DNA of 31,960 nucleotides from Lophium mytilinum (GCA_010093605.1 MU004193.1:310001-341960), one strand, 5' to 3'; shown: positions 1 through 27,820, numbered from the stretch's first letter. The notes: generated by a model not told the origin, from the letters alone. Numbers and translations: made by a program.

Positions 1-906
1 ATTAAGTATATATCTATAAAAATAGATATAGAAAAAAACTAGAATAGAAGATTAATATTCTCTTCTCTTCTAAATCCTCTTAATCTTAGTATAGAGAATA
101 TATATAGGCCTTACTATTTTCTTAGAAACTAGAGATATATATTTTTCTAAGCTAGAAGTAAAGGTCTAAGAAGAATTAACTAAGTAGAAGAAGATAGTCT
201 AGGTTCTAATACTAATATATCTAGTATAGGGAGGGGAATCTAGATAATAAGAACTAGAAGAAGGTAGAGAAGGTAGAGAAGAACTAGAAGTAGGGGAAGA
301 TATAGAAGTAGAAGAGGTAGTAGAAAAAGAGTAAAAAGAAGCTCTAAAAAGAAATAGAAAAGAAAAGAAAAAAAATAAAACTTTAGAAATAATAATAAAA
401 GATAAATTAGATTAAACTAGAACTAGAGTAGAAACCTTATCTTTAGAACTAGATTTCTTAGAAAGTTCTTATACTTCCCTTCTTCTAAAAGTATTAGGTC
501 TAGTTTTAATCTTAGAAGAATCTAAAGAAAGAGTAGCTTTCTAAGAAGATAGAGCTTTAGATAATCTAGAAGTATTATAAGATTTATATTATATCTATCT
601 TCTATTACTATAGGCCTAGAGATAGTTAAGAAGACTCTAATTATAGTTAGAAGTAGGCTTATAATTAGGTAAAATATTAAAAGGGAAAGAAAGAGCTAGT
701 GCTAGAGGAGTTAATATAGCTATAGTAAAAAAGGTAGAAATAATTAGTATAGCTAGAGAGTTATCTAGAAGGTCTAGAAGGCTATTAGAAATAGTAGGGC
801 TTAGAGAAGTAGGTAATAGTAGCGGAAAATTATCTAAAGTAGGCTAAGAAGAGAAGTAAAGAAACTCTTAAGGAGTCTATATTAGAGAGCTTAGTAGTAC
901 TAATAT
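1..906 (-). pseudogene. RIP-degraded Ser/Pro-rich ORF relic downstream of copia pol, open past the window edge
   Basis: One frame from ~906 to 1 reads as coding (runs of TCT/CCT/ACT/CTA codons, e.g. 'SSPTSSSSLPSLPSSSS'). Its stops are TAA/TAG, the type RIP creates. Confidence 0.6.
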
Positions 907-1281
907 TTTAGTATACTTTTTATTAAGATTAGTTAAAGATTAAAAGAGTTATAATTTTTTAAAAGTTAGAAAAATTTAACTTAGTAGTTTTAGGTGCTAA
1001 ATTTAGATTCTAGTGCGACTTTAAGAATTTAGAGAAGTAGAAATTATTAAGTAGTAGAAGTTCTAATATACCTAGCACTTAGTTATTAATAGATAGTATC
1101 TTAGTATACTTAGTAGAAATTTTCTTAATAAAAATTTATATATAGAAAATATAATTCTAAGACTAATTTTTAGTAGCTTAGTATAAATTATATAGAGAAG
1201 TTAAATATTACTCTAATTAGGCTAAGAATTTAAACATGCATAGCTAGAGTATTAACTTTCCCCCTTATCTAGAGAGAAAGT

Positions 1282-4200
1282 TTATTTAAGTCCTAGAGCT
1301 TATCTAAAGAGTAAGAAATAGTTCTTTAAAAGTGCCTTTATAAGACTATTAGCTACCTATTAGTTAGTTAGAATAAATTTAAGGTCTATAGTATTATTAG
1401 CAACTTTTTTCTAAATATAGTAGTATTAGATAGTAATATATTTTAACCTAGAGTAGAACTATAGGTTCTTTACTAGTGTAATAGCTTCTTAGTTATTACT
1501 ATAGATAATAGTAGCTGCTAGAACTTCTTCTATAGCTAGTAATTTTTAGAGAAGAGAGCGTAGCTATATAGCTTTCTTAGTAGCTTAAGTTTCTTTTATA
1601 TATTCTACTTTATATAAAGAGAGAGTAATAACGGTTTACTATTTAGATAACTAACTAATAACTCTACTTCTAATACTAAAAATATATCTAGCTATAGACT
1701 AATATATAGCTTAATTACCGGCCTAATTAGAATTAGTATATTTAATAAGTAGCTAAAGTAGTCCCTTATATATAAGCTTAAGGTTAAGAGTCCCCCTTAG
1801 ATAGTATATAATATATTTTATAGCTTTAATATATACTATAGTAGGGTTTATAAGGTATTAGCTATATATAAATACTAAAAATATAATATTAGATTAAGTT
1901 CTAAGTATAGTATATATAAGAAAGCTAATTACTTTTATATACTAGAATTAATTAGCTTCTAATATAGTATAGCCGTCTTTAGCTAGGTCTATATTACCGG
2001 TTTCTATTAGGGTAGCTATAGGCTTTCTATTAGTAAGGTTAAATTTCTAAAGGACTTTAAAGAGGTACCCCCTTTAGCTAAGTACTAAGCTATAATTCTA
2101 TTAGTTACGTATAATTAATATACCTAGGTAGTAGCTATATACGCCTAGATCTAATATTTTAAAGCGCTTACTAAGAGTATCTTTAATAATCTTAATATTA
2201 GGTTTAAATAGACCTATAATAAGTAGATTATTAATATATACTATAATAAAGTTATAACCCTTTAAAAAGACTTCTAAGTTAGAATCTAGCAGAGAGAAGC
2301 CTAAGCCTTTAAGAAAAGTAGTAAGTATATAATACTAGATTCTAGGCAATTATTTTAATCTATAGAGAGCTTTCTTTAGATAGTAGACTTTATATATATT
2401 ATCTTCTATACTATAGAGTTACTTAATATAGATTTCTTCTTTAATATTACTATATAAGAAGGCGGTTTTAACATCTATTTACTTAATTTCTAGGTCTAGG
2501 GCAGCGGCTATTATAAAGATTATTTTATAGCTTATAGATTTAACTATAAAAGTAAAGGTTTTATTATAATTTATACCTTCTTCTTACTTAAATCCGCGGA
2601 CAACCTATTAGGCTTTATATTATATAACTTTACTATTAGGTCCGCGCTTAAGTTTATATACCTATTTACTATAGAGAATTTATTAGTATAGTAGAGCGTT
2701 AACTAGGTTCTAGATACTATTAGTAATTAGTAACGCTATTTCTTCTTTTATAGCCTTCTTCTATTCTTACTATATAGAGTTAGACTATGCCTAGCTAATT
2801 ATTTTTAGTTTAAATAGTTCTTCCGCAGCTATACTAATAAGTATAAAGAGCCTATATAGATTTTATAGTACATTCTTAGTCTATAATTCTTTATTTTTAT
2901 AATTTAAAACGCGTAGTTCCGGGTAGTTTAAAAGTACTTTAGCTAGTAGTTTATAGAGAATATCTAAAATAAAGATTTCTAGTAGTCCTATTATAGGTTT
3001 AACTAGGTTTCTAGAACTATAATAATCTAGCTCGCGTCTAGTTATAGAATTTAGTTAGAGAGGTAGCTGCCTAGGTACTTACCTAGGTAGCTACTATAGT
3101 AGTGCGGCCGGCCTTAGCTATATAGGTGCTTATCTAGGTAGTAGTTATATAGGTAGTTATATAGCTACTTATATTCTAGGCTAAGAAGAAGAAGGTCTTA
3201 CCTCTAGACTTAGTACTTAGTTAGGTTAAATAGTTAATTTAGAGCCTTAATAGTCTAAGTTATTTATATTATCTTAGTTAACTAATATATTATAGAGGGA
3301 ATCTAGTAAGTATTCTCTAGCTAGTAACTAGTTTTAGCGCGTAATAGGCCGTCTCTTTACTTTAGAAGGTGTAATAGCTAGCGTTATATCTTTCTCTATT
3401 AGTTTAGTAGAAGGTTTAAGTTCTTCTATATTACTTATTAGTAATTAAGCGCGTTTTTATTATTTAAATAGTAGAGAAGCTATAAAAGATTTCTCTTTTT
3501 CTTCTATTATCTAATTATCTAGAAAGGTAATATATAGTAGATATTCTATAAAGATAAAATTTTTTACTATAATAATATAGTTATTTTAGTTTAGTAGGCG
3601 GTAGTTTTATCCTCTAGAATATCCTACTAAAATATAGTCCTCTAAGTAGAAAAACCCTAGTTTCTTTTACTTAGCTTCTACTTTAAGGACGTAGCATCTA
3701 CTACCTATTACTTATAACTAGTTAAGATAAGAAATATTACCCGTTTATACTTTATAAGAAGTAGTAGGTATTACTAAGCTAGGGCTTTAATTTCTAATTA
3801 TAACGGCGGCTTATAATACCTTAGGCTAGTATATTTTTAAGAGGCTAGATTATATAAGTATAGAGTTTATTTTACTAAGAAGTATATAGTTAATTACTTT
3901 AGCTATACTATTTAACTAATACTAGTCTTATCTAGTTATCTTAAGAAGGATACCTTTATCTTTATAGAAGTTCTAAACTAGTCCTAATATATTTTTACCG
4001 GCCTAATCTATTTATATCTAATAGATTCGCTATTTATAAGTTTTATACATATTAGCTAGAAGCTTTAAGTAAAAGAAGAATTTACTTTTTATTCTTAGCG
4101 GCCACGCCTAAAGCATTTATATTTTATTATAGATAAAAGTAACCTAATATCTATATCTATTATATGCTATTTTAAAAGGTCTAGATATATCTATATAGAT

Positions 4201-5880
4201 AAATTTAAAAGGGAATTCTCCTTACTTATTATACTAATTATAGGGTTCTACTTTTATTCTTTCTTAGATATAAGGTTTATATAAGCATCCTTTTAGTATA
4301 GGTTTTATCCCGGTAGATATTATTTTTAGCTTCTAGATTACTTAGTCGCCTAGGTAGCCTAATTATTTATACTAAATTTAATTATTTTAGTTACTAATCT
4401 AGTATGCAGCTATACTAATTTATATTAGCTATTAAAGGTTTAGAATATAGACTCTATTATATTTAGGTACTAGAAAAGTATTATCTTCTTAGGTAATATT
4501 AGCCCTGTTAGAATTAAAAGAGACACTAGTTTTAATCTAAAGGAGCTAGGAGATAGAAACTAGATTATATTCTAGCGTAGAAATATAGAGAGTATCTTTA
4601 AGAAGTAGTATAGTCTTCTTTCTATTACTCTAGTATTTAAGCCTAATAGTTCTAATAGATTTAGGTTAGAGGTAAGATTCTTTAATACCTTTAAGGCTAG
4701 GTTTTAAGTAGCTATATAGTATAGATAGTATAAATATATTATAGAAGCTAGAGTAGTAAGTAGAATAACTAGTATCTAGTAGCTAGATATTTTATAGGCT
4801 AGTAGTAGATTCTTTTACTATAGTTATAATATATAAGATTTCTTCTAGAAACTAGAAGGCTAGAATAGTAGTATAAGTAGTTCTATTATTATCCTTAGCC
4901 TTTTTATTACTAGAGAATCTATCTTCTTTCTATTATTATTTCCGGGTTTTAAACGCAAGGCGTTATTCTAGATATAGCTTAAAATAATTTTCTATAGTAT
5001 AATATATTTTACTATAGTAGAAATATTTTTTAAAGTTAGTTTCTTTATATTCTTTTAGTGCCCTAGCACTCTTTAAATAGATTAATTTAGCGGCTACTAT
5101 AGCTATATTATTACCCTTATAGTTCTTTTAAAGTTTCTTCTTATAGACGGCGGCTTAAATAGTAGTTCTAAAAGTAACTAGTTCTTCTAGAATAATACTA
5201 TCTTTATCTTAGAGTGGGATAAGGGTTTATTTCTAGCTAAATACTATTTTAAATACACGCTAGCTAGGTCTAAGTCCCTTAAGAAATTATATTAAGAGAT
5301 AGACCTTATTTTATATAAAGCGTAGGTTTAGTATATATATCTCTATAAACGCTTCTTATAGTTTCTCTATATAGTTCTTAATTTCTTTATAGTTAGTAAG
5401 AGTAATAGTAGTAAACTTCTTTCTTAGTAATATAAATTCTACGCTTCTAGTAGGGTAAAAGTAGCAGTTAAGTATTACTAGAATATTATAGGTAGTATTA
5501 ACTCTAGTAATTTTATTATATATATTAGTCCCGCATTAATTTTAAATAGAAGAGTATACTCTTTCTTATTTATCTTTCTATATATCTAGTAAGGGCTAGA
5601 GAGTAATTATTACTTATTTAAGATTATCTTTAAAGAGTTGTAACTTATTTATATATACTATCTATTATACTACTATTAGATTTATACCTAGTTCTACTAG
5701 AGGGTTTACTTTTATTACTAACTCTAGTTTATACTAGTAGCGGTATAGTAGAGACCTGTAACTATTTATTATAATCTAGTTATAAATTTCCCTTTTCTAT
5801 ATATTCTATCTATTAGAAGACTCTAGCTTCTTAATTTTATCTACTCTAGCTACAGCTATAATACTATCCTTAGTAGATAT
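1282..5880 (-). pseudogene. copia gag-pol polyprotein relic (~1532 codons)
   Basis: Probable start ATA (RIP of ATG) at 5880, 'MSTKDSIIAVARVDKIKKLE'; end 'ALGLK*' with TAA at 1284-1282. The span is 4599 nt, a multiple of 3, with many RIP stops. Confidence 0.85.
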
Positions 5881-6794
5881 AGTAGAGAGATAGAGAGGGT
5901 ATATAGCTTATAGTAGAGTTAAAAGAAATTTAAAGAATAGATATAGGTAGGTTAGATATATCTAGTAACTAGTTTATTAGTAACGGAGGTAATTATAGTA
6001 GAGGAGAAGACGTAGGCGTATTAATAGCTAATCTAGTAGATAAAGGGGTTTTAATAGAGAGCCTCTAAATATTAGTACTACTAGTAGTAAAGAGAGAGTT
6101 AGTAGTTATATAGCCTTTAGAAATAACTTTATCTAGTCTCTTTTTATAAATATAGTTAGTATTATTAATATTATCTTTAAGAAAAAGAGTGTTATAGTTA
6201 TTAAAGATTTTAGATAATCTAGAAAATTAAGTTTAATTAAGTATTTAATAGATATAAGTATAAGTAGGTTTAAGAGAATACTTATATAGATTATATCTTA
6301 TCTAAGAAGTAGATAACTTAAAAGTAGGTAATTTTATATTAAGAGAGAAGGGGTGCCTTTTTAATACTTTATTACTAAGTAAGTAGCTAGTAATATAAGT
6401 AGAGAGTTAAGAGTAGCTTATATACTAATTTAGAATTAATATTATAAAAGTAGGTATAGTCTTATCTAGAGTTACTAGTTTCTACTAGTATTAATAGTAA
6501 AACTACCCCTTAGCCTAATTTTTAATTTTAAAATAAGGTAGCTAGAAGATAGTTAGTTTCTAACTACCTTCTTTTTTCTAGTTTATATTTTAGTATAGAG
6601 CTAGAAGAATCTAGATAGAACTTATTAGTAATTAAGGTAGTTAGGTAGCTTAGAGCTAGCCTAGCCTTCTACTTATTTCTATCTAAAAGGGGCTACGTAG
6701 TAAAGATAAATAATATTTATTATTTTACCCCTAATAAGGTTTTAGTAAAGCGGGTTTTTAGTATATTAGATAGTACTTAGCTTATTATAAACCC

Positions 6795-6806
6795 GGGCTT
6801 ATAACC
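6795..6806 (-). promoter_or_regulatory. copia primer-binding site GGTTAT(G>A)AGCCC
   Basis: Minus strand reads ...TTAACA|GGTTATAAGCCC directly after the LTR end. This is one RIP change from the GGTTATGAGCCC initiator-tRNA-Met half-molecule PBS known from copia/Ty5-type elements. Confidence 0.85.
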
Positions 6807-6936
6807 TGTTAAAAGGAATACTAAGTTAATTAATTAACCTAGGTAGAGGGGGAATAGGGCTATCTATATATCCAACCCTAAGCCTAATTTCTCTTATGTT
6901 GAAACACTAGTTAGCCTAAGCTAACTACTTCCAACA
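6807..6936 (-). repeat. 5' LTR of the copia element (130 bp)
   Basis: Minus strand starts TGTTGGAA and ends TTTTAACA (TG...CA with short terminal inverted repeat). It abuts the PBS and marks the switch to non-RIP sequence. Confidence 0.8.
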
Positions 6937-7247
6937 ATAAATTCTTTGCAATGTATTAGGCTTGCAAGCCTCGTCGACAGTCGTAGAGAGATGTTAAATG
7001 GAGGAACAAATAACTGCACCCGTGGCTTCCTTTGCCCGTTTTACTGAGCCTCTAAAGTACGTTAATCGAATTTTAATATCTAAAGAACGCTGATTTAGCG
7101 CAATTATTGTAATGCGGTAGCTCGTCCGAGTCGCAAGACACGATGCTGGCAAACATATTGATATCTGGCTTCCTTTCATTTCGCAATCATTTCTGTTGAA
7201 CGCTTCATCAATGCGTGTATGTACTAGGTATCCGTTACCGATCATTT

Positions 7248-8143
7248 TTAGCGCATTTCCACTCCTTCCATCCCTTCAGTAATCGTCATCACCGCCGGCC
7301 CGCCCACAGATGCCTCCTTGAGCTTCCTGGCCAGGTCTTCAAATCTCCTTCGCTGCTCATCCTCTGAAGGCCCCTGGTATCCCAGCTTACTCGTCAAAGT
7401 GGACACATCCTCTCCAACCTCGTGTAGCAAAGCTCTGCCTGATTCGTCCACGCAAATCGTACGAGCAAGATGCTCGAAAAATTCCAAAACACCGTCATTC
7501 CATAGTTCATTTTGCTCTAATATGTGAAGATGTGCTCGACCGCTTTCCGCACTCCCGTCAACCAGAGTTCATGTTCGTTCCCTTCGCCTACGCTAAGCAA
7601 GTAGAGATCGCAGAGAACGCCAAGCTTAAGAAAATTGTCGAGGCGAAAGTACTCGAACGGCTTTCCTTTCGGCCAGGCTTCCTCCGATGGATAGTTTATC
7701 TGACGAAACATGGCAAGTTGTATGTCAGAGTTGTACAGCGGGTCAGCGACCTGATAGAGGCGCCGAAAGAGACGAGCAGGCAATCCGACGCGGTGCGCTG
7801 AATCAGACACACTTTGCTCGATTTTTGGCTCAATACAGTCAAGCACTAGCCCTCCGACATATTCTCCACATCGTGGATGCATCTTTTTATCGGGGCCACT
7901 CGTAGAATGTACGTGGATGTCGCAGGCGAGAAGGTGCGCTAAGAACGTGACGGTGTCGTCGCTCAAGGGATCTGGTAACTCGGGAATTAGTGTTTTCAAG
8001 TAGTTCTCCAGGCGGGACCCAATCTGGTAAACACACTCGTCCGTGTTATCCTAGGTGCATGTTTTCCATGGTATGGGTTTCTTAATGATGCTGGGGAATG
8101 ATGACAACGTGGATTTCTGATGATGGCGATCGTTGGAAAACAT
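7248..8143 (-). pseudogene. Paralog A of the unknown family; ~298 aa if repaired; in-frame TAG at 8053-8051 and 1-nt frameshift at ~7518
   Basis: ATG 8143 gives MFSNDRHHQKSTLSSFPSIIKKPIPWKTCT*DNTDECVYQIGSRLENYLKTLIPEL, running into track ORF 7517-7999. Adding one base at 'TAT TA GAG' gives ...HIFTYxEQNELWNDGVLEFFEHL, joining track ORF 7248-7487. The product is colinear with paralog B over its full length. Confidence 0.88.
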
Positions 8144-8333
8144 TAGGTGGGACAAGGGGACTTCTTATCAATCGTACGTCTCTTTGAATTGTCACCCAGA
8201 AACTTCTTGCACCTTACAGTAAAACCAATGTTTGTGAGAAGGGAAGAAGGTGGTGTACCACCTGCGTAATTCCCTGTCGGGCCGTAACAGCTTCTGAGGC
8301 TACCTACCAGACATCACATACCGAAAACCCCTA

Positions 8334-9218
8334 TTACATTTCCAGTTCGTCCTTCGCCCCATAAATCGCTACGGGCTCCCCCATAGAAGCCTTCTTCATC
8401 CTTTCAAGCATTCTCTCGATCCTGCTTTCTCGTTCATTTTTGAACACCCCTTCGCAATTTATTCTTGTCGCCAAAGATACCAGATGTTCCCCGAGCTGGC
8501 GCAACAAGGTGCATCCCCCCTCGTCTATGCCAATGGTTGATGTCATATACTTGAACAAATCGATGACCCCTTCCTCCCATTCTTGAAGCCGTTCCATATA
8601 GCTGCACAAATCCGAAGCTACCTTTCGGAGAACGTTCAACCAGCTGTCATGGTCTTCCTCGTCGCCGCGGCTCAGGACGTAAAGCTCACAAGGGAATGCG
8701 ACATCGCCCACACCTACAACTTCCGAGATGCCGCTATTGGTGGAGGTTTTCTTCTCGTACGTTTCAAGCTCCCGAAAATTTCGGAGAACAGCACCCAGGA
8801 TATGAGGGGTGTATTCCGGTTCCGCGATTTGATAGAAGCAGCGGAAAATGCGTGCCTGAAGCTTGATTAGGGAGAGCCACAAGTCCAGGTATTGTGTGTA
8901 CAGCCAGCTATCAGGCGCCATGAGTATCGTCTCTCCAATACTGAACGGGGCCTTGTCACCATCGGGGTCGTCCTCCTCTCGGTCCTCTCCGCTCTTGGCG
9001 TACAGATGTAAGTCACCAGCAATCAGAGCGGCGAGGAGATTGACCGCGTCATCGCTCACAGTCATAAGGCCCTCCCACGTAGGATTAACGAGCTGTGGGA
9101 GTAGTGTTTCCATGTAGTTCTGGATCCGGATTTCCATCGTGAGTAGGCACTCATATGTTGGCGAGAGATGGGTTTCTCTCCATCTTATGTATCTTGGAGG
9201 GCTGGGTTGTGGGTCCAT
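8334..9218 (-). CDS. Paralog B: hypothetical 294-aa protein of unknown, probably alpha-helical family
   Basis: Intact intronless ATG-TAA ORF. It shares motifs with both neighbours (LLAALIAGDLHL, ARIFRCFY, CELYVLS, WLNVLRKV, EWEEGVIDLF). There is an upstream TATAAAAA and no evident signal peptide. Confidence 0.9.
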   Translation of the reverse strand: MDPQPSPPRYIRWRETHLSPTYECLLTMEIRIQNYMETLLPQLVNPTWEGLMTVSDDAVNLLAALIAGDLHLYAKSGEDREEDDPDGDKAPFSIGETILMAPDSWLYTQYLDLWLSLIKLQARIFRCFYQIAEPEYTPHILGAVLRNFRELETYEKKTSTNSGISEVVGVGDVAFPCELYVLSRGDEEDHDSWLNVLRKVASDLCSYMERLQEWEEGVIDLFKYMTSTIGIDEGGCTLLRQLGEHLVSLATRINCEGVFKNERESRIERMLERMKKASMGEPVAIYGAKDELEM

Positions 9219-9490
9219 GACGACGTGAAATGCTGTTGGAGAAGATGATGTTAAAATCTGAGACGCAGCGCATGGCCATAGTTTTTATAGAGGCGGGCGT
9301 TTCTTTGAGCTCTGGCCTAGAAGCTTCGTGCTGCCTTTAGTAAGACCTCCGTTTGTTAACATACCTTCAGAATCAAGCGGATTTGCTGTTTCCAAGGATT
9401 CTTCCTTTACGATAAGAACGCACTGCTCACCTCTTACATGCTGCAAAAACCTCCACCTCCACAACCTCAAATCATTCCCTTTACGCCATC
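9219..9490. promoter_or_regulatory. 272-bp divergent intergenic region, probable bidirectional promoter
   Basis: Lies between head-to-head ATGs at 9218 (-) and 9491 (+). TATAAAAA on the minus strand at 9289-9282, ~65 nt before B; C/A/T-rich leader before C. Confidence 0.65.
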
Positions 9491-10264
9491 ATGTCCCGAG
9501 CATCGGAGACCCTCCCCGACCTTGAATCCCGCCTCGAAAGCCTCTCACCATATCTCCCAAAGCTCCTATGGAATGCCCATCAAGACGTCCTGCAATTCCA
9601 CGCCCGCCTGCTTGCGCTAGACATAACCCTCCACTCGACGCCAGACCGGCACAAGGGCGCCTTCAAGGTGGGGCAGACAGTCGTTCATGGCGCTTCTCTA
9701 CCTATGCTCGGGAAAGATGAGATGGTCAAGTGGGCAAAGATCTGCGCTCAGCACTTTCGATATCTGTATGGCGAGGTTGATCAGGACTTTAGGGAGGACG
9801 TGTGCCGAGGGATGATCGATTTGTTGCAGCAAGTCGAGCACAAAGGTCCGATATGGATTACTCATGGAATCATGATTATGCTTTGCGAATTATACGTCCT
9901 CGCTGATAATCTCGACGACAGCCTGGATCGGAGCATCTGGCTTGACGGAATGCGGAAGGTGGGAGTGGGATTGTGTAAATGGACTGATGGAGCGGGGGAA
10001 TGGAACGATGAAGCTCTAGATCTGCTCTATTACGTCGAGTTTACGTTGGGATGTAAGATGGGGGAGCAGAGGGAGGTGCGGGCGTTGTTGTTTGAACTTC
10101 TGGAACGGCTGAGGAGGCTGGCGCAGACGTTGCCGGTACCAAGAGATGCAGACTTGGTGATGAAGATCCAAGAGAGGTTGGACGAAATGCAGAAGGTGCA
10201 TAAAGTGATGGACCAGGCGGAGATGAATGAGGTGACTGCTGCTTTGCGGGATGTTGGGATTTGA
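9491..10264 (+). CDS. Paralog C: hypothetical 257-aa protein, most divergent family member
   Basis: Intact intronless ORF with good start context (CATCATGTCC). Motifs FHARLLALDITLH, AQHFRYLY, CELYVLA, WLDGMRKV and EWNDEALDLL match A and B in the same order. Confidence 0.9.
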   Translation: MSRASETLPDLESRLESLSPYLPKLLWNAHQDVLQFHARLLALDITLHSTPDRHKGAFKVGQTVVHGASLPMLGKDEMVKWAKICAQHFRYLYGEVDQDFREDVCRGMIDLLQQVEHKGPIWITHGIMIMLCELYVLADNLDDSLDRSIWLDGMRKVGVGLCKWTDGAGEWNDEALDLLYYVEFTLGCKMGEQREVRALLFELLERLRRLAQTLPVPRDADLVMKIQERLDEMQKVHKVMDQAEMNEVTAALRDVGI

Positions 10265-10526
10265 TCTGTGTGACGGGGAGAGTTTAGATATGCGAGCCTG
10301 ATGACTTTCTAATGCCGGGATGCTTTGGACTCCCTAGAAGAACTAAGATCTCGCCGTTGTGAAAGCTCCCTATGCAGTAATTAGGAAATGTATTGTCTTG
10401 GTGTTGGTGAGAGGAAGCTAGCTGGGCCTGTAAGACGGAAGAATATACATGGAAGCTGCTGATTAAGCCACTACACAGGAAAGGGTCAACACCGTCTCAT
10501 GACCTCCATAGATTTTGGGCGAGCCT

Positions 10527-10588
10527 ACTCGTAGCCCCCCTTTTCACTCGTCGCAGCCCCCCTTTTCACTCCGTGTAGCCCCCCCTAC
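10527..10588. repeat. Three imperfect tandem copies of ACTC..G(T/C)AGCCCCCCTTTTC (19-22 bp)
   Basis: actcgtagccccccttttc / actcgtcgcagccccccttttc / actccgtgtagccccccctac read directly. Confidence 0.85.
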
Positions 10589-10740
10589 AATAGGTTTAGC
10601 GCCGGCCCGTATGAATGATGTTCCTCCAACCAAACTCACTTACTTAGCTCTAGATTGCCTTGCACGCCAAGCTCACCAGATATAGAGGTGGTTACGGGCT
10701 CATGCACGCTACTAGCTCGTGCACGGTTTCTTTTAACCGC

Positions 10741-11436: not shown

Positions 11437-12493
11437 TATACCCTCTCTTTTTAAAAACTAAGCTTCTATAAGAACTTATAGAAAGACTTACTATTAAACT
11501 TATATATTAGATAGCTAATATAGGTATAGCTCTATATATAGATAGAGTATACTAATAAAATTATATAGATAGATATTCTTAGTTAAATTAATTCTACTAT
11601 CTAATAATAGCGTAGAATCTTAGGTTATACTAGACTATTATAATAATATAGTAATATTCTAGAGGTTTTATTATATAGGTAGAGTCTAGTTCTTTAGTTT
11701 AATAAAGTAAGTAGATAGTTTAGGTTTCTATAGGCTATAATAATAGAAGTTAAAAACTTTATAAAGGTAGCCTTTAAAGTTTCTAGATAGTTACTAGAAT
11801 CTATATAGTTATATACTACTAATATAATAAACTTTATACTATATATTATTATTCTTAACGCGTAAGTTAATAATTTAAGTAACTATAAACTCTTCTATAG
11901 ATTTATTATTATCTTTATACTAGATTAGCTCTAGTAGTAGTATAGATTCTAGCTAATTCTAGCCTTTAATAGGCTTAGAAGTATCTAGCTATAGTAAGAA
12001 AGAATAGAAGATATTATAGATCTTAGTATTAGATAGTAGGTCTAATTAGAAAGCTACGCCCTAATTAATAACCTTATTAACGCGGAAGGGGCCTATAAAC
12101 TTATTATTAAGCGCCTTCTTAGCGCGGTCTAGTTTAATATTTTTAGTATTAAGCTAGACTATATTATTAATATATATATCCGCTACTATATTATAATAAT
12201 AGTTAGCTTAGTAAGCCTATTTTTTCTAGGCCTATATAATATAGTTTTATAGATATACTTTAATATTCTTAAGGTATTAGGCTATATTATTAGATAGCTT
12301 ATATTTAATTTTCTTATTCTTAGATATTTTCTTATCTTTAACTATAAATAGCTCTAGTTCTAAGCGTAGAGTATATCTATAATTAGTAAAGAATAGTAAT
12401 AGTTCTATTATAGCTAAGATATAAGTATTAGCTACTAGTTCTATAGAGAGTAATAGGTTATACTAATTATTCTATATATAGTTAATATAGGCT
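11437..12493 (-). mobile_element. Gypsy A (chromovirus), integrase C-terminus and chromodomain relic
   Basis: RIP-reverted reading: 'YVNYMQNDW...SPFFANYG', 'VWLDTKNI...KFIGPFRV', 'IHNVFH', and chromodomain 'EEFIVTQIIDSR'. Confidence 0.85.
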
Positions 12494-12742
12494 TATTATA
12501 GTTATAGTATAGAGGAGCTTAGTAGTATAAGGTAACTAGATAGGTTAATTTTAAGAGGTTATATAAGAAGTAGAAAGAAAGGCTTCTAGAAAAAAACTAT
12601 ATATATAGAGGAGAGAGGCGCGTAGGCGCTAGGCGGGCTAGTATATAGGCGGCGCGAGGTAGTATAATAGGTATAGAGGTAGAAGGTAGAAGGCCGGTAA
12701 TAGGTAAATATATAACTAGAGAATAGGGCGTAATCTATTATA
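12494..12742 (-). repeat. 3' LTR of gypsy B
   Basis: Gap-free match to 20294-20542 (offset 7800); both ends TATTATA. Confidence 0.95.
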
Positions 12743-14906
12743 CTACCCCCCCGTTTAAGAACGCTAGTAGGAAAAGAAAAGAAAAGAAAAAGAGAAAAGA
12801 AAATAGTATTATAGGCCGTGTCGGGTTTAAATATAAGAGTGTAGTTATCTAGTGTAGTAAATTATATAGCATAGTTTAGCTAATTATTAGTTATATACTA
12901 ATATATAAGAAGCTAGTATACTTAAGGTATTACTTATAAGGGCTTTTCTATTATAATAGCTTAGCCTACTTTATATAGCTAAGGATTCTAATCTTATTAT
13001 AGTTATTATATATAAAGTTATAATAAACTATATAAGGCTATTATTAATTATAGTATATAGGTATAGTAAGGTAATTATATAAAGATAAGAATATAGCTTA
13101 GTATAGAGTAATTATAATTATAAATAGTTAGTAGTAAAATTATTAGTAGTATTATTATTATTAGCAAGGCGCGCGCGCTAATTATTATTAGGTTTAAAGT
13201 CTAGATAAGGACTATTAGCGTCTAGGTTAAGGTTGTAGAATTTACTAATAAGGTCTACGGCCTTAGGTATAAACTATTTCTATAGTTACTATTTCTATAG
13301 TGCAGTGTAGCCTTTATAAAGTTCTTTATATTTAAAGTAGTAGCGTCCTTTTAGTCCGCGGCCGCGCTAGCGGCTATTAATAATACGCGTAATTAGGTAT
13401 TATTTAATAGATTTAGAGGTAATAGAGTTAATTACCTAGATAGAAGGTAGCAGTAGCTAGCGTTAGCCTAGTAGTAGACGGGACCTATCTAGGTAGAGAA
13501 GGTATAGGTAGAAAATAGGGTATATTTAAAAGCCTTTAAGACTTATATTTATAAAGTTAAGTTAGAAGGCGTAACTATTATTAATAATCTTAGTAATATA
13601 GAAGGGGCCTAGGTTCTTATAGTTAAGTAATTTATTTAGTTGCATAGTTTTAACGTTTCGGGCGTTAAGCTATACCTAGTTATTAACTTAGAGCTTTAGC
13701 GGGGGATTATAGTACTAATTAGTATAGTCTACTTATTTAGTTTAGGCCTATATTATTATAGTCTTATATTTATTTAGAATATTCTTTATCTAGTTAATAT
13801 ATTTATTACCTTTAAGCTAATAGTAATAGATAGTAGCGTTAGTACTAAGAGCAGGCATAGGTAGAGGTTTAGGTGCGGTGTTATTTATTACACTAGGTAG
13901 AGGCTTAAGGCTAGAACGCGGGTAAAAACCCTTATTAATAAAGAATAGCGTTATTATAGTAGAAGTATTAACTTAGTTATTTACTAAGAATTCTCTAATA
14001 GGCAAGTAGTTAATCTAGTTATTCTAGCGGTAGTTAATAAATTGCCTAAGGTAGGCCTTTATAACGGCGTTTATATTTTCTATTTATCTATTAGTTTTAG
14101 GGTGGGCGGCTATAGAAATATTCTAATAGATACTAATACGCTTATAAATATATTTCTAAATATCTAAAATAAATTATAGGTTGCAATTACTAATAATAAT
14201 ACAGGGGAGGCTATAGAGGTAGTAGATCTTATAAAGAAAGGCGTTAATAATATTATAGATAGAGGTGCCGCTTATAGAAATATAGTAATATTCTTTACTT
14301 ACGCGGCAGATAATAATAAGAATCTTAGTATAGACTTAGCTATTATACTTATAGAGAGAAAGCTCTATAATAAAGTCTATAGTAATATTAGTCTAGCGCT
14401 ATTCTAGTATATTAAGTAAATATAGAAGACCTTATTTTTTATTATAGAAGGCCTTTAACCGTTTATAACTATAGTAGGCGCTAGTATAGTCTTTAACTAA
14501 ATTATATATACCTAGCTAGAAGTAGTAATATTAGATAAGTTTATATATACTATACTTTTCCGGGTATCTACTAATAGTAGTATTATAGGTAAGCTATAAG
14601 AGCTTAAAATATAAGTTATTATACGCAGGGATATATAACTAGCTGTAATAGTATAATTAATTACAATAGATTTTAAATTCTAAGATATCTAGATTACTAA
14701 TAATATTACGTAGAGATTAAGGGAGTGCGCGCTTACTATTATATATAAGGGTAATAAGTTTATAGAATATAGAGTTAAAAAGTAGTTTAGGTAGCTAGCT
14801 AGAGTAGCCTTTATTAAATAGATTAGTAAGTATACGTTATTAAACTAGATTAGGTTCTACATAAAGATTATTATTATTCTTAAAAGAGTTAACTATAAGA
14901 GAAGAA

Positions 14907-14948
14907 TTAGGGTTAGAGTTAGGGTTAGAGTTAGAGTTAGGGTTAGGG
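14907..14948 (+). repeat. Telomere-like hexamer tract, 4x TTAGGG + 3x TTAGAG, inside gypsy B pol
   Basis: ttaggg ttagag ttaggg ttagag ttagag ttaggg ttaggg read directly. Confidence 0.9.
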
Positions 14949-17900
14949 TTAATATTATTATTGCGCGCGTGGCTGCGCAGTATTGCAGGTGCAAGAAGAA
15001 ATTAAGAGTATATCTTTAATAGTAGTAACTCTATAGTTAGTAATAGGTCTAACTCTTTATAGTAAGGCACTAGCCTAATTAGATTTAGCGTGCGGCCTAG
15101 GCCGTTATTAGATAAGCTTAAGTTAATATTTAGTAAATGCGTTAGTGCAATACCTAGGCCTAAGTTATAAGATTTAAGGACTATTTAGTATTAAAATTAA
15201 TTGCGGGGATTATCTAAATTAGTAGAAAGGTCTTATAATCTTCTTATAAGGCTATCTAGTTTTCCTCTAAGAATACTAGGTTAATAGATAATCTTAAAGT
15301 TAAATCTAGTAAGAAACCTAGCCTAGCGGGCTTAGCAATAATTAAGATATTTAGTTAATATAAAATACTTAAAATTGCAGTAATCTATAAGTATATCTAT
15401 AGGGTTATCTAAATTAGTACTTACTAGTTTAGGGCGCTATTTCTTAAAGGCTTTAACTATAGTAAGTAGTTTCTTATTATAGATTTTATAGTTACATTCC
15501 TAAGGGCTTATTTTAGATAAGAAGAAGGCGATAGGGTAGAGTAGACCGTCCTCTCCTATCTAAGATATAACGCCGGTAATAACGTAGTTAGAAGCGTCTA
15601 TTTTAATGTAGACCTTCTTACTATATTAAAAGTAGCGTAGAATAAATGCAGTAGTAAACGCTATTTTAAGTGCTTAGAATACTTATTTATATTCTCTATT
15701 CTAGATAAATTAAGCTTTAAGCTTTATCTTCTTTCTATCTATTAATTTTATTATAGATATAAGTAGTAATACTATCTAGAAGAATATATATATAAAATAT
15801 TAGTAGAAATTAGTAAATTCTATAAAGGCTTATACATCGCGTAGGCATATAGAAGTCTTTTAATTAATAATAGCGGTAACCTTATCTATATTTATATAGA
15901 CGCCCCCTATTATAATAATAAGGCCTAAGTATTTAATCTTAGTCTTATTAAATTTGTATTTAGTAAAGTTATAGTTAAGGCTAGCTTTATTAAGCCTTTC
16001 TAGTATCTTTATAATAGGCTCTTTATATTCTTTCTTAGTACTATTTATATAGACTAGAACGTTATCTATATAGGCTAAATAGAAATTATCTAGGTAGTTA
16101 TATAGTATCTAATTAATAAAGAATTAGAATTATCTAGAGCCTTCTATAACGCTAAAAAGTATAATAATAGATTTATACTGTCCCTATTATATAGAGAAGG
16201 CTATAAGATCTATATCTTCTTCCCGCATTTAAATTTAATTAAACGTGGAAATAACATCTAGTTTAGAATACTATTTAGCGTTACTAAGCTTTTAGAGTAT
16301 TTCTTAGATAAGTAGTAGTAGGTATCTTATCTTAACTATTATAGCGTTAACAGCCCTATAATTAATGCAGAAATAAACGCCCCCTCTAGGCTTCTAGATA
16401 AGAAGTATAGGAGAGAATATAGAGAATTATAACTTATAGATAAACCCTTTATTAAGGTTATTATTAATCTATTTCTTTATAACTTTAAGTTCTTTCTTTA
16501 ATATAGCGTAGGGCCGGGCCTTAGGCAGTCTACCGGCTCCTTCTATTAGATTAATTTTGTAATTAATTCCGGGTTAGTATAGTAGAAGTATATTAGCCTC
16601 TACTTAGTTAAATATATAAATATAGCGGCGTAGCCGTTTTAAAAGCTATTATTCTATCTCTTCTTAGAAGAGGTGCTTTTTAGTATACATAAACTTATTA
16701 ATATCTTTAGCTAATATTTTACGCGCTTTAAGCGGAATATTATTACCTATATAAAATGCAATAACCTAAAGTCTATTACAGGTAATAATAAAGTCTTTAT
16801 TTTTATTTTCTAATACTTTAAGAATGTATTATAGAATTTATTTAAGTTTCTATTCTTTTTACTTAGAAATAGACGCTATGCGTATATAGGCGTCTGCACT
16901 AGTAGGTCTCTAATTAGTAGCGTTATAATTAGCGTATTTATTTAGTATATTTTTAGGGCGTATACTATTAGCCTATATAGTAATAGAATTATAGTTAAAA
17001 TAGTATATGCAATTCTAGTAGGGCTCGCAGTAAGATTATATAAAGTCTAGGCGTTCTACTTTCTAGTTAATAGCTAGATTATATTCCTAGAGCTAGTTAA
17101 GGCCTATAATAATATTATAGTCTTCTAGATTAGTAATATAAGCCTAGTAGCGGCTCTAATAGCTATTTATATCTATACTAAGGAGGGCTTTATATATTAC
17201 TTTTTAGGTAATAGCTAATCTATTAGCTAGTTTAAGAACTTAGGCTTTCTTAAGGGGTTTTAAAGGTAAATTTACTAGGTACGCGAACTTAGTACTAGTA
17301 AATAAATTAGTGGCTCTATAATTAAGATAAGAATTAATTTTTATTATTTCTATAGGTTATTCTTTCTTATAGGTTTATACTATTGCTAAAAGAACTATAT
17401 TATTTACCTACTTAATGTTAAATTCTCTATCTTTATTTTAAAATAGTTTCTATTAAGCTTTACTAAGAGAGGCTGCTAAAATAATAAGCCGTCTATACTA
17501 AAGATTCTATATAACTAAGTTCTTATTATATTATAGACCGCAACTATAGTCTATAACCTTACTTTTCCCTTAAAACCCTTACCTTTAGAGTAATTAAAGC
17601 CGCGTTTATTATTAAGGGTTTTATAGTTATTAAAACTATTATTATTATTCTTATCTAAGAGTTCTTTAACGCGGGCGGCATAATTATTAAGGCGGGGTGC
17701 TAAGAATAAATCTATCTAATAAGTAGTAAAGCCTAGTTTATTAAGTTAGTTTATAGAATAGTATAGGTTTCGCGTAAAGTACTTTAGAAGATAGTAGTAG
17801 AAGTATTTACTATCTTTTATAAGCGCTTCTCTATCGCCTTTATAAAGCTTATTAGGGGGTACCTAGTTAAAAAAAGGGGTAATCTTAATATTATCTTAGG

Positions 17901-20293
17901 CTATAGAGATAGTAGCTACAATTAAAGAGCGTAGAGTATAGGTGCGGTCGCGATTATAATTATAGTTATAATAATTACTATCGCGGTAATTATAGTTATT
18001 ATAGTTACAACTATTATAATTAAAGTCTTAGAGCTAGTTATAGTTAAAGTTTCTAAAGCTATAGTTATTAGGTTGCGCGTTTTTATTAATACTATTATTG
18101 CGGAGCTATTTACGTGCAGCGTTAATATACTATAGGCTAGTAGTAAAGCCTTTACCTAAAATAGCGCTAGTAATAATATCTAGGCGGAGTTTCTACTTAA
18201 GGTTATAGACGTTATTATAGCCTCTATAGCCTAGAAGGTAGATTATATATAATTTTATTAGTTTCTATATATAGTTAGGTATTATACTATTTATCTAGAT
18301 AAGCTTATAAAGCTTATTCTTAGTAGTACTAATTTTATTAGAATTATTATATTAGAAGTCTAAGAATGTAATAGCTTTCTAGATAGTAAGAAATAGTTAA
18401 TAGCTATCTTACTAGGCGCGGAAGCCCTTAAGGGGTATACCTATAAGATACTTACTAAAGTAGATAAGGTATAAGGGTTTACTAGATCTTATAGCGTAGC
18501 TACTATAGTTAACTTTATTTAGGAATCTATAATAGAACTTAGAGTACTTATTCTTATTACCTCTAAACTTATCTAGATGCGGCTAGAACTTATCTTCTAT
18601 ATAGGGGACTCTATTTAGAGTAATACTAAGGTTTTAATAATCTTTAGATATCTTAATATAGAGGTCTTAGTAATAGTAATAGGGATAGCTTACATTTTAT
18701 AAATATAAGTGTAAGTATAAGTATAAGTATTAATAAAAGTAATACTTATAGGAGCGGTTATAATAATAAGATAGGCTACGCGTATAGTTACGGCGATAAG
18801 GGGGGCTTCTATTATTAGAGGAGAATAGACTAGAGTTATAGTAACCGCGTATATACTCTATAGTATAATAAGCTTAATTATTATTACTTATATATTTTAT
18901 AGTGTAGTAAGGTTAATTAGTATTATAGCCTACTAAGGGGCTATTATTAGCTTAAGCTTCTTCTAATTTAATTACTCTATTAAGAGAGGCTAGTAGATCT
19001 TTAGCTGCTGCAGTAATAGGGTTAACAGGTAGTAGAGGTATAATAGAATAGGCTAGATAGGGCACTACTAGGAGTATTAGTATAGGGGGGCCTTATATAG
19101 TTAGCGCAGTTATAAGAGTGCGCTAAAGAGTCTATAGTATTTTAATCTTATTTTCTAGAGTAGTAAGGCGCGTATTATATTTATACTTATTCTTAGCTAT
19201 CTAAGTAAGGTTAGCTATAAGGTATTTAATAATTTTTCCTTGCTCTATAGACTACTTATTAGCTTAGATATAGTTTTTTTACTAGGCTTTAATATCTACT
19301 TTAAGAGAAGCAATTATCTCTTTATAAGTATAGAGTTTATTTTTATATTCTTCTAGTTTAGTTTTAATATTAAGTAGGCGTTTAAGTTTCTTATACGCGG
19401 CCTTTAACTTATTATTCTTCTTATTATATTTCTTCTTAAGAACTCTAATCTTGTTCTAGAGGTTGCGCTATACTTTCTAGTTATTCTTGCGTGTTTACTA
19501 GAGGATTTTAGTTATAGCTTAATAGCTTCTAAGAATATAGAAGAAGTAAATAGAGTTAGCTTAGACTTATATAAGAAAGTTCTAAGAGTCTATAATCTTA
19601 ATTAAGCTATTAAACTATTTATTACCGGGCAGAAGTAAATAGTCTAGAAACTTAGTAACATTATTAATAGAGTTAAAAAACGTGCCTAGGTTACAGCTAT
19701 AGCTAGAAGTATAGTACTTAATAATAGAGCTATAGATTATTAGGTCTAGAGTATATATAGAGTTATTAATATAATTATCTTTAGTAGCGTCTTTATCTTA
19801 GGTAAACTAATTCTCTTTCTCTTAGGTTAGCTAATAGGTTAGCTAAGTATCTACGCGCACTATTTAGGTAGACTACTAAGTATCTATGCATACTATTTAC
19901 ATAGACTACTAGGTATCTTCTTTAGTTAGCTTTTAGAGTAGCGCGCTCTTTAAAGTCTTATAAGAAGACTTAGAGGGCGCGTAGAACTATAAATAAAATA
20001 GTAGTAGAAAGTAGAAGAATAGTTATAAACTACTATACCTAGAGCGCCTAGGTTCTATTCTAGTGCCTAGTAGAGGCGGTAGATTACTTATTATAGAGAA
20101 TATAGTAATAGCACTTAGTAAGGTAAAGTAGTAAGGCTATATGCCCTTTAGTATTATATATATAGTTTATATAGATATACTTACTAAGCTATTAAGTAGC
20201 TTAGTAAATAAGGATTAAGGTTTAAGGTATAAGGATTAAAGTAGTAATAGTAAAAAAGAATTAGTGCTAGTTAGAATATTAAATATAACCTAA

Positions 20294-20542
20294 TATTATA
20301 GTTACGGTATAGAGAAGCTTAGTAGTATAAGGTAACTAGGTAGGTTAATTTTAAGAGGTTATATAAGAAGTAGAAAGAGAGGCTTCTAAAAAGAAACTAT
20401 ATATATAGAGGAGAGAGGCGCGTAGGCACTAGGCGGGCTAGCGCGTAGGCGGCGCGAAGTAATGTAATAGGTATAGAGGTAGAAGGTAGAAGGCTAGTAA
20501 CGGGTAAATATATAACTAGAGAACAGGGTATAATTTATTATA
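20294..20542 (-). repeat. 5' LTR of gypsy B
   Basis: Direct repeat of 12494-12742; the differences I could see are C/T or G/A transitions. Confidence 0.95.
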
Positions 20543-25333: not shown

Positions 25334-27820
25334 AAAAAAGACTATAAGAAGAACTATATAAATATTCTAACTATACTATATAATACTAGCCTCTATCTTA
25401 ATATTAATAAGTATTACTTTTTAGTTAAGAGAGTTAAATACCTAGGCCTAATTATTATACCTAATAGAATAGAAATAGACTCTACTAAAGTTAGTACTAT
25501 TTAGAACTAGAAGCTACTCTATAATATTAAGAATATATAATTATTCCTTAGTTTCTATAACTTTTACTAATAATTTATTACAGGATACTTATAAATTACT
25601 ACTCTATTAACTAAGCTTACTAAGAAAACTATAAAATAAGGTAATCTTCTCTTACTTACTAATAGTCTAGTAGCGTAAGCCTTTAAAAAGCTTAAAGCCT
25701 TATTTCTATTTGCGCTAGTTCTAGCCTACTTTAATCTAGATCTAGACTATATACTAGAGACTAATACCTTAGACTATATTATAGCTATAATTCTTTCTTA
25801 ATAAGAACTAGATAGAATTCTTTAGCCTATTATCTTTTTTTCTAAAAAGATAACTCTAGCTAAGTATAACTATAAGATCTATAATAAGAAATTACTTACT
25901 ATTATCCGCGCCTTTAAGAAATAGTGCCCTAAGCTTACTAGTATTATTAACTCTATACTAGTATAGATAAACTATAAGAATCTAGAATATTTTATATTAT
26001 CTAAGTAACTAAACCGCTATTAAGCCTAGTAGGCTAAGTATTTCTCTTAATTTAACTTTATCCTAAACTAGTAACTAGGTAAGTAGTTAACTAAGCCTAA
26101 TAGCCTTACTTATAGGCCTAGTAATATTCTAGATAATTTAAATAATTCTAGAACTAAATATTAAATATAAATAGTATTAAAGAAAAGAAACCTACTAGAA
26201 GGAATATATTAAGTCTTATAACTTACTAGTATACTTTTAAATAAGTAGAAAGTCTCTATTAAGAGGCTTGCCTAACTAATATATAATATTATAGAATAAT
26301 ACCCTACTAATATTCTATATATTATTCTAGCTGCTAATAGAACTAAAGAAAAGAAGAAGCACTTAACTAAGGCTATAGCTAACTATAGTAAGTTAGATAA
26401 AGATCTATATAATGCTGCCTTTAATATTACTACGCTATTTACCCCTAAACCCGTACCTATAGATTCTACTACTAAAGAAGAAGTGCTAAAGATATTTAAG
26501 CCTAGTAATAAGTTAGATAAGAACTTACTAGGGAACTATACTAATAATACTACTATTTAGTAGATTAATCGCGTGTATATAAAGAATAATATCCTCTAGT
26601 ATATTATATACGCTAAAGAGATAGATAAATAATAAATTCTACTTAAACTAATTTAGAAATAAGAAATTAAAATTAAGCTTAGTAACTATAAGATCTATAA
26701 AAATAGGCTATTTATTAACGGCCGCCTATATATTCTATATAACGTAAAGCTCTATATATAGTTAATTAAGAAAGCCTATAACTCTTTACTAGAAGACTAT
26801 ACTAGATAGAACTCTCTTTACTATTATCTCTTCTTCTAGTACTACTAGCTAGAAATTATAAACTCTATTACTATATATATTAACGCCTACTATATATATA
26901 GATATATAAAGGTTTATATAGATAGTAAGTATAGCCTACTTAAACTACTACTAATTCTAAATTATTACTAGATAGATATCTCTATTAACTTTATTACTAA
27001 GCTGCCCCCTTATACTATTAAGGGCTAAATATACTAATATATTATAGTAGTTATTAATAGGCTCTCTAAGAAGTATAAGTTTATTCCCCTAGATTCTATA
27101 GAGCTAGAAGACGTTATATAAGCCTTTATTAACTAGATTTAGTATAAAGAAGGCTATCTAGACTATATTATTTCTAACTATAGTATATAATTTACCTTAT
27201 TCTTCTAGAAATACTTATATAAATGCGTAGGGACGCGCCTAAAGCTATCTATAATAGTATATCTAGAGACTAATAAATAAACTAAAATTATTAATGCCGG
27301 CTTAAAATAGTACCTACGCGTATATATATATTACCTATAGAATAATTAGATAAATCTTATTACCTTTACTAAGTTTAAAGCTAATATAGATATTAACTAG
27401 TCTACTAGCGTCTCCCCCTTTAAGGCTACTAAAGAATATATACTAAGAAGTAGCCTTAAACCCTCTTTATAAGAAATTATTATACTAGAACCTAAGAAAT
27501 AAGGCGTAGATACTGCTAAGAAGCTTATTATATAAATCTATAAATTATATAAGTTTCTTAAAGGTAAACTATATTAGAATTAATCTAAAATAAAGAAACT
27601 AGCTAACTAGAACTACTTACTAGCCTCTAAGTTTAAAGTTAATAATATAGTTATACTTAATACTAAGAATATCTATACTATATAACTAAGTAAGTCTCTT
27701 AACTATAAGAATCTTAGTCCCTTCTATATAACGCGTATTATTAATAATATAGTATATAAGCTAGAACTTTCTAAGTCTATAAAAGAAATCTTTCTAGTAT
27801 TCTACCTATAGCTACTACTT

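Follow-up and report, generated by a model that had tools for sequence, protein, structure and literature searches.

We analyzed a stretch of 31,960 nucleotides from Lophium mytilinum (GCA_010093605.1 MU004193.1:310001-341960), hereafter the window, with positions counted from its first base. Three related genes, which we call A, B and C, lie there on a small island of GC-normal sequence surrounded by retrotransposon remains that have been degraded by repeat-induced point mutation (RIP). B and C are intact, and A is a pseudogene. The features of the island are as follows:

6907..10546, no strand: unique island of non-RIP GC content carrying the three genes (contigs, GC and RIP indices)
7248..8143, minus strand: gene A, pseudogene (reading frames, BLASTP to B and a six-frame search with a hidden Markov model [HMM])
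8334..9218, minus strand: gene B, intact, intronless, 294 aa (open reading frame [ORF]; all-alpha AlphaFold2 [AF2] model, predicted to be MIF4G-like)
9219..9490, no strand: spacer between B and C, 272 bp (gap between the divergent starts)
9491..10264, plus strand: gene C, intact, intronless, 257 aa (ORF; ortholog in Mytilinidion resinicola)

Three Divergent Paralogs on a Unique Island

Contig matching and the GC profile delimited the island as 3.64 kb of unique sequence with a GC content of ~0.50. In each of two DNA sequencing runs, a 3640-nt contig matched positions 6907-10546 without a single difference or gap, and the remaining contigs of both runs stopped at the island edges; the two runs come from one sample and are possibly the assembly's own source, so that they are not independent of the assembly. 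Since the contigs break at both edges, the island represents unique sequence bounded by multi-copy repeats. Its contig depth was 112 and 89, compared to 104-165 in neighboring long contigs, and the island is therefore single-copy by depth. An earlier reading of the sequence alone (the sequence-only reading) had given it 3.8 kb; the GC-normal island is real, but the unique contigs put it at 3.64 kb. All stop-to-stop frames of at least 100 aa found in the whole 31,960 bases (7/7) fall inside it. B and C are arranged head-to-head with starts 272 bp apart, A shares the strand of B and lies downstream of it, and the interval 9219-9490 is a putative bidirectional promoter common to B and C.

The three genes, linked within 3 kb, are highly divergent, at 24-31% identity. 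By BLASTP, B aligned with C across 205 columns at 24% identity (E 2e-14) and matched both the N-terminal part (31% identity, E 8e-23) and the C-terminal part (31% identity, E 3e-15) of A, a similarity well above what chance would give. When the six frames of the window were searched with a family HMM built from four full-length members, only A, B and C were found, at E values up to 100. Four blocks recur across the three genes, i.e., FLAHLLACDIHVH / LLAALIAGDLHLY / FHARLLALDITLH, ARLFRRLY / ARIFRCFY / AQHFRYLY, CDLYLLS / CELYVLS / CELYVLA, and WLTGVRK / WLNVLRK / WLDGMRK. The proposal of three colinear divergent paralogs thus held up, with BLASTP E values from 2e-14 to 8e-23 and with every quoted block present in the translations. 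A further claim, that a second tryptophan follows the first by 21 residues in all three genes, was correct for B and C when counted by hand, but applies to A only when it is read across its frameshift.

B and C were also described as intronless and lacking a signal peptide, in agreement with their intact ORFs and hydrophilic N-termini. B and C reached maximum Kyte-Doolittle means over 19 residues of 1.33 and 1.58, their maximum 10-residue hydropathy within the first 35 aa was 0.88 and 0.52, respectively, and the pI values were 4.6-5.3; no signal peptide or membrane segment was detected by hydropathy in either protein. Judged from their sequences, B and C are soluble, acidic, intracellular proteins.

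Gene A Is a Pseudogene Partly Hidden in a Public Gene Model

Gene A occupies two minus-strand frames, at 7517..8050 (177 aa) and 7248..7568 (106 aa). It probably opens with the ATG at 8141-8143, is interrupted in frame by a TAG at 8051-8053 and closes with a stop codon at 7248-7250. Its homology to B runs upstream past the TAG (IPWKTCT*DNTDEC in A versus IRWRETHLSPTYEC in B), and the six-frame HMM search showed the frame to switch somewhere from 7514 to 7550, with one match in frame -0 (8134..7514, profile positions 2-187) and another in frame -2 (7550..7254, profile positions 176-276). A carries exactly two visible lesions, i.e., one TAG and one frameshift, and both are present in the read-based contigs, which bears out the earlier view of A as a decayed copy. 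An intron in place of the frameshift was ruled out, since the 21-residue spacing between the two tryptophans is intact across the break, indicating an indel and leaving no room for an intron. An assembly error behind the lesions is likewise unlikely, as the contigs (word depth 112 and 89) equal the window base for base.

The public model BU16DRAFT_541458 (NCBI; 498 aa, P0005 in our protein set) consists of B in its first 294 residues and of A's first frame in the rest, and its predicted introns remove the stop of B, the spacer and the in-frame TAG of A. C, encoded on the opposite strand, is a gene separate from this B+A model. The model is an annotation artefact in which an intact gene has been joined to part of a pseudogene. 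In run X3, which is RNA by guess only, we found one 175-nt contig at 8349-8523, over the 3' end of B, with a depth of 3.8 and nothing over A or C. This is at most a faint hint of B transcription.

Relatives Are Found in Two Genera of Mytilinidiaceae

Using C as a query, we searched 1,835,955,588 representative sequences by phmmer at E<=1e-3 and obtained eight proteins, comprising C itself, P0005 (the B+A model), four real relatives (P0006, P0007, P0008 and P0010) and two low-complexity entries. The latter, P0009 and P0011, were rejected as relatives, being low-complexity repeat proteins with no match to the family HMM at E<=10. A profile search added P0012 (260 aa), from Mytilinidion resinicola, which is 65-66% identical to C with 0 gaps over 257 aa. 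P0007 (673 aa) is M. resinicola BDZ99DRAFT_523003 and lies on the same 1,325,604-bp contig as P0012, and P0008 (276 aa) is L. mytilinum BU16DRAFT_541454, which shares a contig of 1,795,902 bp with B but, by tblastn, is absent from the window.

There are three consecutive family domains in P0007 and two in P0010. By inspection, the junctions in both look like a whole gene end joined to a whole gene start, from which P0007 (labeled 'ARM repeat-containing' in UniRef) probably represents three tandem genes of one strand that the gene caller has merged, as with B+A, and P0010 is probably a merger of same-strand tandem genes as well.

No Pfam family was matched at E<=1 by any of nine sequences (B, C, the two pieces of A, P0006, P0007, P0008, P0010 and P0012), consistent with the earlier failure to match the proteins to any named family; in particular, HET, NACHT or related domains were absent from these nine sequences at the same threshold. 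The best match in a sequence search of the PDB was cytochrome b562 at E 0.19, which is meaningless, and two metagenome scans matched 218 and 204 pattern stretches with 0 confirmed relatives. A literature search for the locus-tag prefixes BU16DRAFT or BDZ99DRAFT found no mention of either. As far as these searches reach, relatives with a named species come only from Lophium and Mytilinidion (Mytilinidiaceae). Since the phmmer search with C, in which DOC was not aligned directly, detected no named relative outside Mytilinidiaceae, it showed no link to known killers, HET/NLR proteins or DOC proteins.

The Models of B and C Resemble MIF4G Domains

A MIF4G domain consists of about ten helices arranged in antiparallel, HEAT-like pairs within one compact domain of 200-250 residues. 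We modeled B and C with AF2 on 9-sequence alignments and obtained a mean predicted local distance difference test score (pLDDT) of 81.8 and a predicted TM-score (pTM) of 0.79 for C, and 75.2 and 0.75, respectively, for B. Both models contain 11 long helices plus one helix of 4-5 residues, with no strands of at least three residues, and show the helix count and layout of a MIF4G domain. No enzyme, nuclease, kinase, pore or membrane feature was apparent in the models or hydropathy profiles of B and C.

When the models were compared with known structures by VIA-align, the best match for C was 3rk6_B, the middle domain of Paip1 (Z 13.0, root-mean-square deviation [rmsd] 4.3, 199/217 aligned), followed by 2vso_E from eIF4G (Z 12.9, 208/239 aligned). 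For B, the best match was the MIF4G domain of eIF4G, 2vso_E (Z 14.3, rmsd 4.3, 214/239 aligned), together with 3rk6_B (Z 12.7) and 4iul_B from DAP5 (Z 12.5). Lower rows contained UPF2, CWC22, T. cruzi EIF4G5, mimivirus vIF4G and Gle1. By title (MIF4G, eIF4G, Paip1, UPF2, CWC22 or DAP5), 11 of the 20 highest-ranking rows with C, and 13 of the highest 21 with B, were MIF4G-type. With Foldseek against the PDB, the only rows with a TM-score near or above 0.5 were MIF4G domains, i.e., 6yxj_B (Paip1; 0.55/0.63) for C and 1hu3 (eIF4GII; 0.49/0.66) for B. Identity to MIF4G domains in the structural alignments was 11-15%.

B and C therefore resemble the MIF4G domains of eIF4G, Paip1, DAP5, UPF2 and CWC22 and of the zebrafish eIF4G-like protein 2i2o in size (~220-290 aa), in their all-alpha models with antiparallel helix pairs in a short solenoid, and in being soluble and non-enzymatic, and such domains superpose on the whole B or C domain (Z 13.0-14.3, rmsd 4.3, 199-214 residues). 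They differ in that MIF4G domains occur in all eukaryotes, whereas the B/C family is found in two genera as multiple tandem copies, and in that B and C match neither the Pfam MIF4G profile nor a PDB chain by sequence.

Several points weigh against reading the family as lineage-restricted MIF4G-like scaffolds. Neither model gave a Foldseek match in the PDB at E<=1e-3, Pfam MIF4G (PF02854) was not matched by any of the nine family sequences at E<=1, and no PDB sequence match fell below E 0.19. Helical repeats can reach Z values of ~13-14 by their common arrangement alone, as the fold-search tool itself warns, and the MIF4G likeness of the models could reflect generic HEAT/ARM geometry. Both models, moreover, rest on one shallow alignment of nine sequences, and the restriction to two genera depends on the content of the protein library. 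Because the observed Z values are attainable by geometry alone, we lean only slightly toward calling the predicted fold of B and C MIF4G-like.

An alternative that we consider doubtful, yet the most serious of those weighed here, is that B and C are generic HEAT/ARM proteins without MIF4G biology, or (near-)functionless orphan genes slowly decaying in a heterochromatic transposon desert. The Foldseek rows were mainly designed ARM/HEAT repeats at E ~1e-2, and the structure search of the ESM Atlas with a weak model of C (pTM 0.50) gave assorted clusters of HEAT, importin and TPR helical repeats. Of the three copies, one has already been lost as a gene, and over these genes run X3, whose RNA nature is a guess, has just the 175-nt contig at the 3' end of B (depth 3.8). 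Decay is nevertheless difficult to reconcile with the open frames of 294 and 257 codons, which have been kept in B and C despite their 24% identity and so indicate a long coding history, or with the gap-free alignment of C to its ortholog. As for generic geometry, MIF4G domains fill most of the top VIA-align rows and match the whole domain with both models, whereas other HEAT proteins match partially or rank lower.

Other ESM Atlas comparisons gave no usable match for B and feature scores of 0.81 and 0.77 for C, below the useful range. Co-folding of B with C scored 0.00 in both runs, which were made with no controls and with the family alignments unused, so that this score says nothing either way. 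Separately, we observed a conserved C-terminal tail of 12-15 residues after the last helix in A, B, C, P0008, P0012, P0006 and the second domain of P0007 (P0007-d2). The tail has the form hydrophobic-T/A-x-G/A-A/M-x-acidic-hydrophobic-x-M/I, stands at or near the protein end and is modeled with low confidence; it could be a docking peptide.

Paralog Lineages Probably Predate the Lophium/Mytilinidion Split

We then considered the age of the paralogs in a maximum-likelihood tree of 11 domain units, from which P0009 and P0011 were left out as spurious and in which A was read through both breaks. Three pairs were well supported: C with P0012 (support 99/99) and P0008 with P0007-d2 (99/98, 50% identity), both of which are named Lophium/Mytilinidion pairs, and P0007-d1 with P0010-d1 (100/100, 48% identity). 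The placement of A, B and P0007-d3, which share an N-terminal (R/K)x(I/L)xW motif, was not resolved in this tree. Since the two named pairs cross the genus boundary, at least two paralog lineages, and probably three, predate the Lophium/Mytilinidion split and have been retained in both genera. On this comparison of vertical versus patchy occurrence, which covers two named species, the paralog set appears to be one retained vertically over a long time rather than a sporadic, mobile one.

This history bears on the functional proposal of the sequence-only reading, namely a poison/antidote or allorecognition locus in which B and C act as a two-component module. That idea did not find support: no system-specific feature was detected, the predicted fold is that of a soluble scaffold, and vertical retention across genera weakens it. 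Spore killers such as Podospora Spok, Neurospora Sk and S. pombe wtf are small gene sets in transposon-rich DNA, and Spok and wtf are patchy in distribution. If the island were a meiotic driver of the poison/antidote type, either B or C would be the toxin and the other one its inhibitor, in a similarly transposon-rich setting. The circumstantial points in favor are the tight head-to-head pairing of B and C across a 272-bp spacer, the transposon-rich surroundings and the restriction of the family to one lineage; like the killers, the island is a small gene set in such DNA. However, B and C have the same predicted soluble scaffold fold without a nuclease, kinase, pore or other toxin-like or membrane feature, C is conserved vertically across genera without gaps, the paralog lineages are old, unlike the patchy distribution of Spok or wtf, no homology to known drivers was found, and the island is single-copy (depth 112 and 89 versus 104-165). 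We regard a driver as very improbable.

The doc genes of Neurospora offer a second model. In the available text of the source, doc-1/doc-2/doc-3 are linked, highly divergent paralogs of variable copy number whose alleles have been kept through speciation (PMC4831770). A doc-type locus for kind discrimination or allorecognition, in which B and C, together with further copies on the scaffold, would act as recognition determinants of compatibility groups, would account for the formal likeness, i.e., linked divergent paralogs at 24-31% identity that belong to no named family and are intracellular, as B and C are predicted to be. Copy turnover, as seen in pseudogene A, and the fast divergence of orthologs (48-66% identity) also fit. 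On the other hand, the exhaustive phmmer search with C, in which DOC was not aligned directly, found no named relative outside Mytilinidiaceae, and no Pfam HET or NACHT domain is present. Furthermore, as far as the source text goes, doc is defined by deep allelic haplogroups in populations, whereas the island is known from one sample; the divergence seen here is between species and between old paralogs rather than between alleles, and just one further run covers any of the island, with 175 bases that are identical. A doc-type role is thus improbable. Similarly low is our expectation for a third variant, in which the array would be a self/non-self or conflict system made of MIF4G-like scaffolds, with the paralogs competing for or mimicking a host docking site for translation factors or RNA helicases. 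Were it true, the copy sets (B and C here, others elsewhere on the scaffold) would act as compatibility groups or as a toxin-and-decoy pair, and a new protein class would join fungal recognition or drive.

A Proposed Tandem Family Stranded by Transposon Invasion

The reading that we prefer, at a probability of roughly 50%, is that A, B and C are members of an old tandem family, confined to one lineage and evolving fast, whose proteins are soluble helical scaffolds of MIF4G-like type and which was stranded by transposon invasion. The family proteins would be soluble, acidic and all-alpha, of ~260-300 aa, with 11 helices in antiparallel pairs. They would form an old tandem array whose lineages had parted from one another ahead of the Lophium/Mytilinidion split and whose orthologs then diverged fast, down to 48-66% identity. 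In Lophium, retrotransposons would have invaded the region and then been destroyed by RIP, cutting the array into islands and leaving B, C and the decaying A on the 3.64-kb island. Birth-and-death turnover would keep B and C as open frames while A is being lost. We are confident in the anatomy and the evolutionary history as described.

The molecular role is considerably more speculative. By analogy with stand-alone MIF4G proteins, B and C may be non-enzymatic docking scaffolds that bind a partner protein along their helical-repeat surface. Many MIF4G domains dock DEAD-box ATPases, and the first candidate for a partner would be such an ATPase or another RNA-metabolism factor; a scaffold role of B and C for a partner of this kind, the likeliest mode of action, strikes us as improbable in itself.

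If the preferred reading is true, the locus represents an unnamed family with a familiar fold that forms a fast-evolving tandem array within one small fungal family, in contrast to the usual picture, in which a single conserved copy serves each pathway. It would also offer a handle on how a core RNA-metabolism scaffold domain is recruited to a lineage-specific role. Among the matches listed in a literature search for lineage-specific MIF4G expansions in fungi, nothing was relevant. Orphan families of this kind are numerous in most fungal genomes, the locus is weak as a driver or recognition candidate, and its practical value is modest. Of more immediate use is the correction of the public model BU16DRAFT_541458 to an intact gene plus part of a pseudogene, and of the M. 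resinicola 'ARM repeat' protein to what are probably three genes.

RIP-Degraded Retrotransposons Flank the Island

The sequence surrounding the island differs sharply from it in composition. In the flanks, GC was 0.23-0.33, TpA/ApT 1.6-2.1 and (CpA+TpG)/(ApC+GpT) 0.03-0.33. The same three measures were 0.26, 1.85 and 0.08 for the left flank (1-6900), 0.28, 1.77 and 0.14 for the right flank (10750-31960), and 0.50, 0.69 and 1.25 for the island. We scanned translations of the flanks against Pfam, with stops read as X, and identified two degraded elements:

2005..3729, minus strand: Ty1/Copia-type relic, RIP-degraded, left flank (Pfam matches to RVT_2 and SH3_retrovirus)
12478..20542, minus strand: Ty3/Gypsy-type long terminal repeat (LTR) element, RIP-degraded, right flank (direct repeat and Pfam matches)

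The Copia relic retains a reverse transcriptase (RVT_2) at 2005-2670 (E 6.6e-35) and an integrase SH3-like region at 3544-3729 (SH3_retrovirus, E 8.5e-05). The Gypsy element is bounded by LTRs at 12478-12742 and 20276-20542, a 267-bp direct repeat of 89% identity, and contains a reverse transcriptase at 15914-16372 (RVT_1, E 1.6e-12) and an RNase H at 15416-15694 (RT_RNaseH_2, E 2.3e-18). The RIP indices and these Copia and Gypsy matches confirm the earlier placement of the genes within RIP-degraded transposable elements. Neither the six-frame HMM search (E<=100) nor tblastn (threshold 1e-3) revealed further decayed copies of the family in the flanks.

L. mytilinum is a wood and bark saprobe. 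A comparable setting exists in another Dothideomycete, Leptosphaeria maculans, in which genes are isolated in RIP-degraded AT-isochores, including the head-to-head AvrLm10A/AvrLm10B, according to the available text of the sources (PMC3945186; bioRxiv 10.1101/2022.05.10.491286). Both are small gene islands within RIP-degraded retrotransposons that hold a divergent neighboring pair. As described in the same text, the L. maculans genes code for small effectors secreted by a plant pathogen, and AvrLm10A and AvrLm10B are partners rather than paralogs, whereas B and C are paralogs without a signal peptide.

Additional Features of the Window

Within the right flank, two inverted matches of 70-74% identity connect 13576-15494 with 25867-27749, i.e., the Gypsy relic with a second, oppositely oriented degraded copy, and the sign of the GC skew flips near 21 kb. 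Scans of the window for tRNAs and Rfam families gave no match. An 83-aa frame beginning with ATG lies at 6994-7245 on the minus strand, next to A on its downstream side, in the low-GC margin of the island; no relative of it exists within the family, and the frame is probably noise. At the right island edge (10456-10616), a motif resembling 'GTAGCCCCCC(T)TTTCACTC' recurs in short direct copies, and many other contigs of the DNA runs partly match this interval, while the unique contig stops at 10546; the edge has the appearance of a dispersed-repeat end. At the left edge, 34 bases (6903-6936) had a word depth of 500 in a DNA run and of ~2250-2490 in run X3, which suggests that they are part of a very abundant, possibly transcribed, repeat family.

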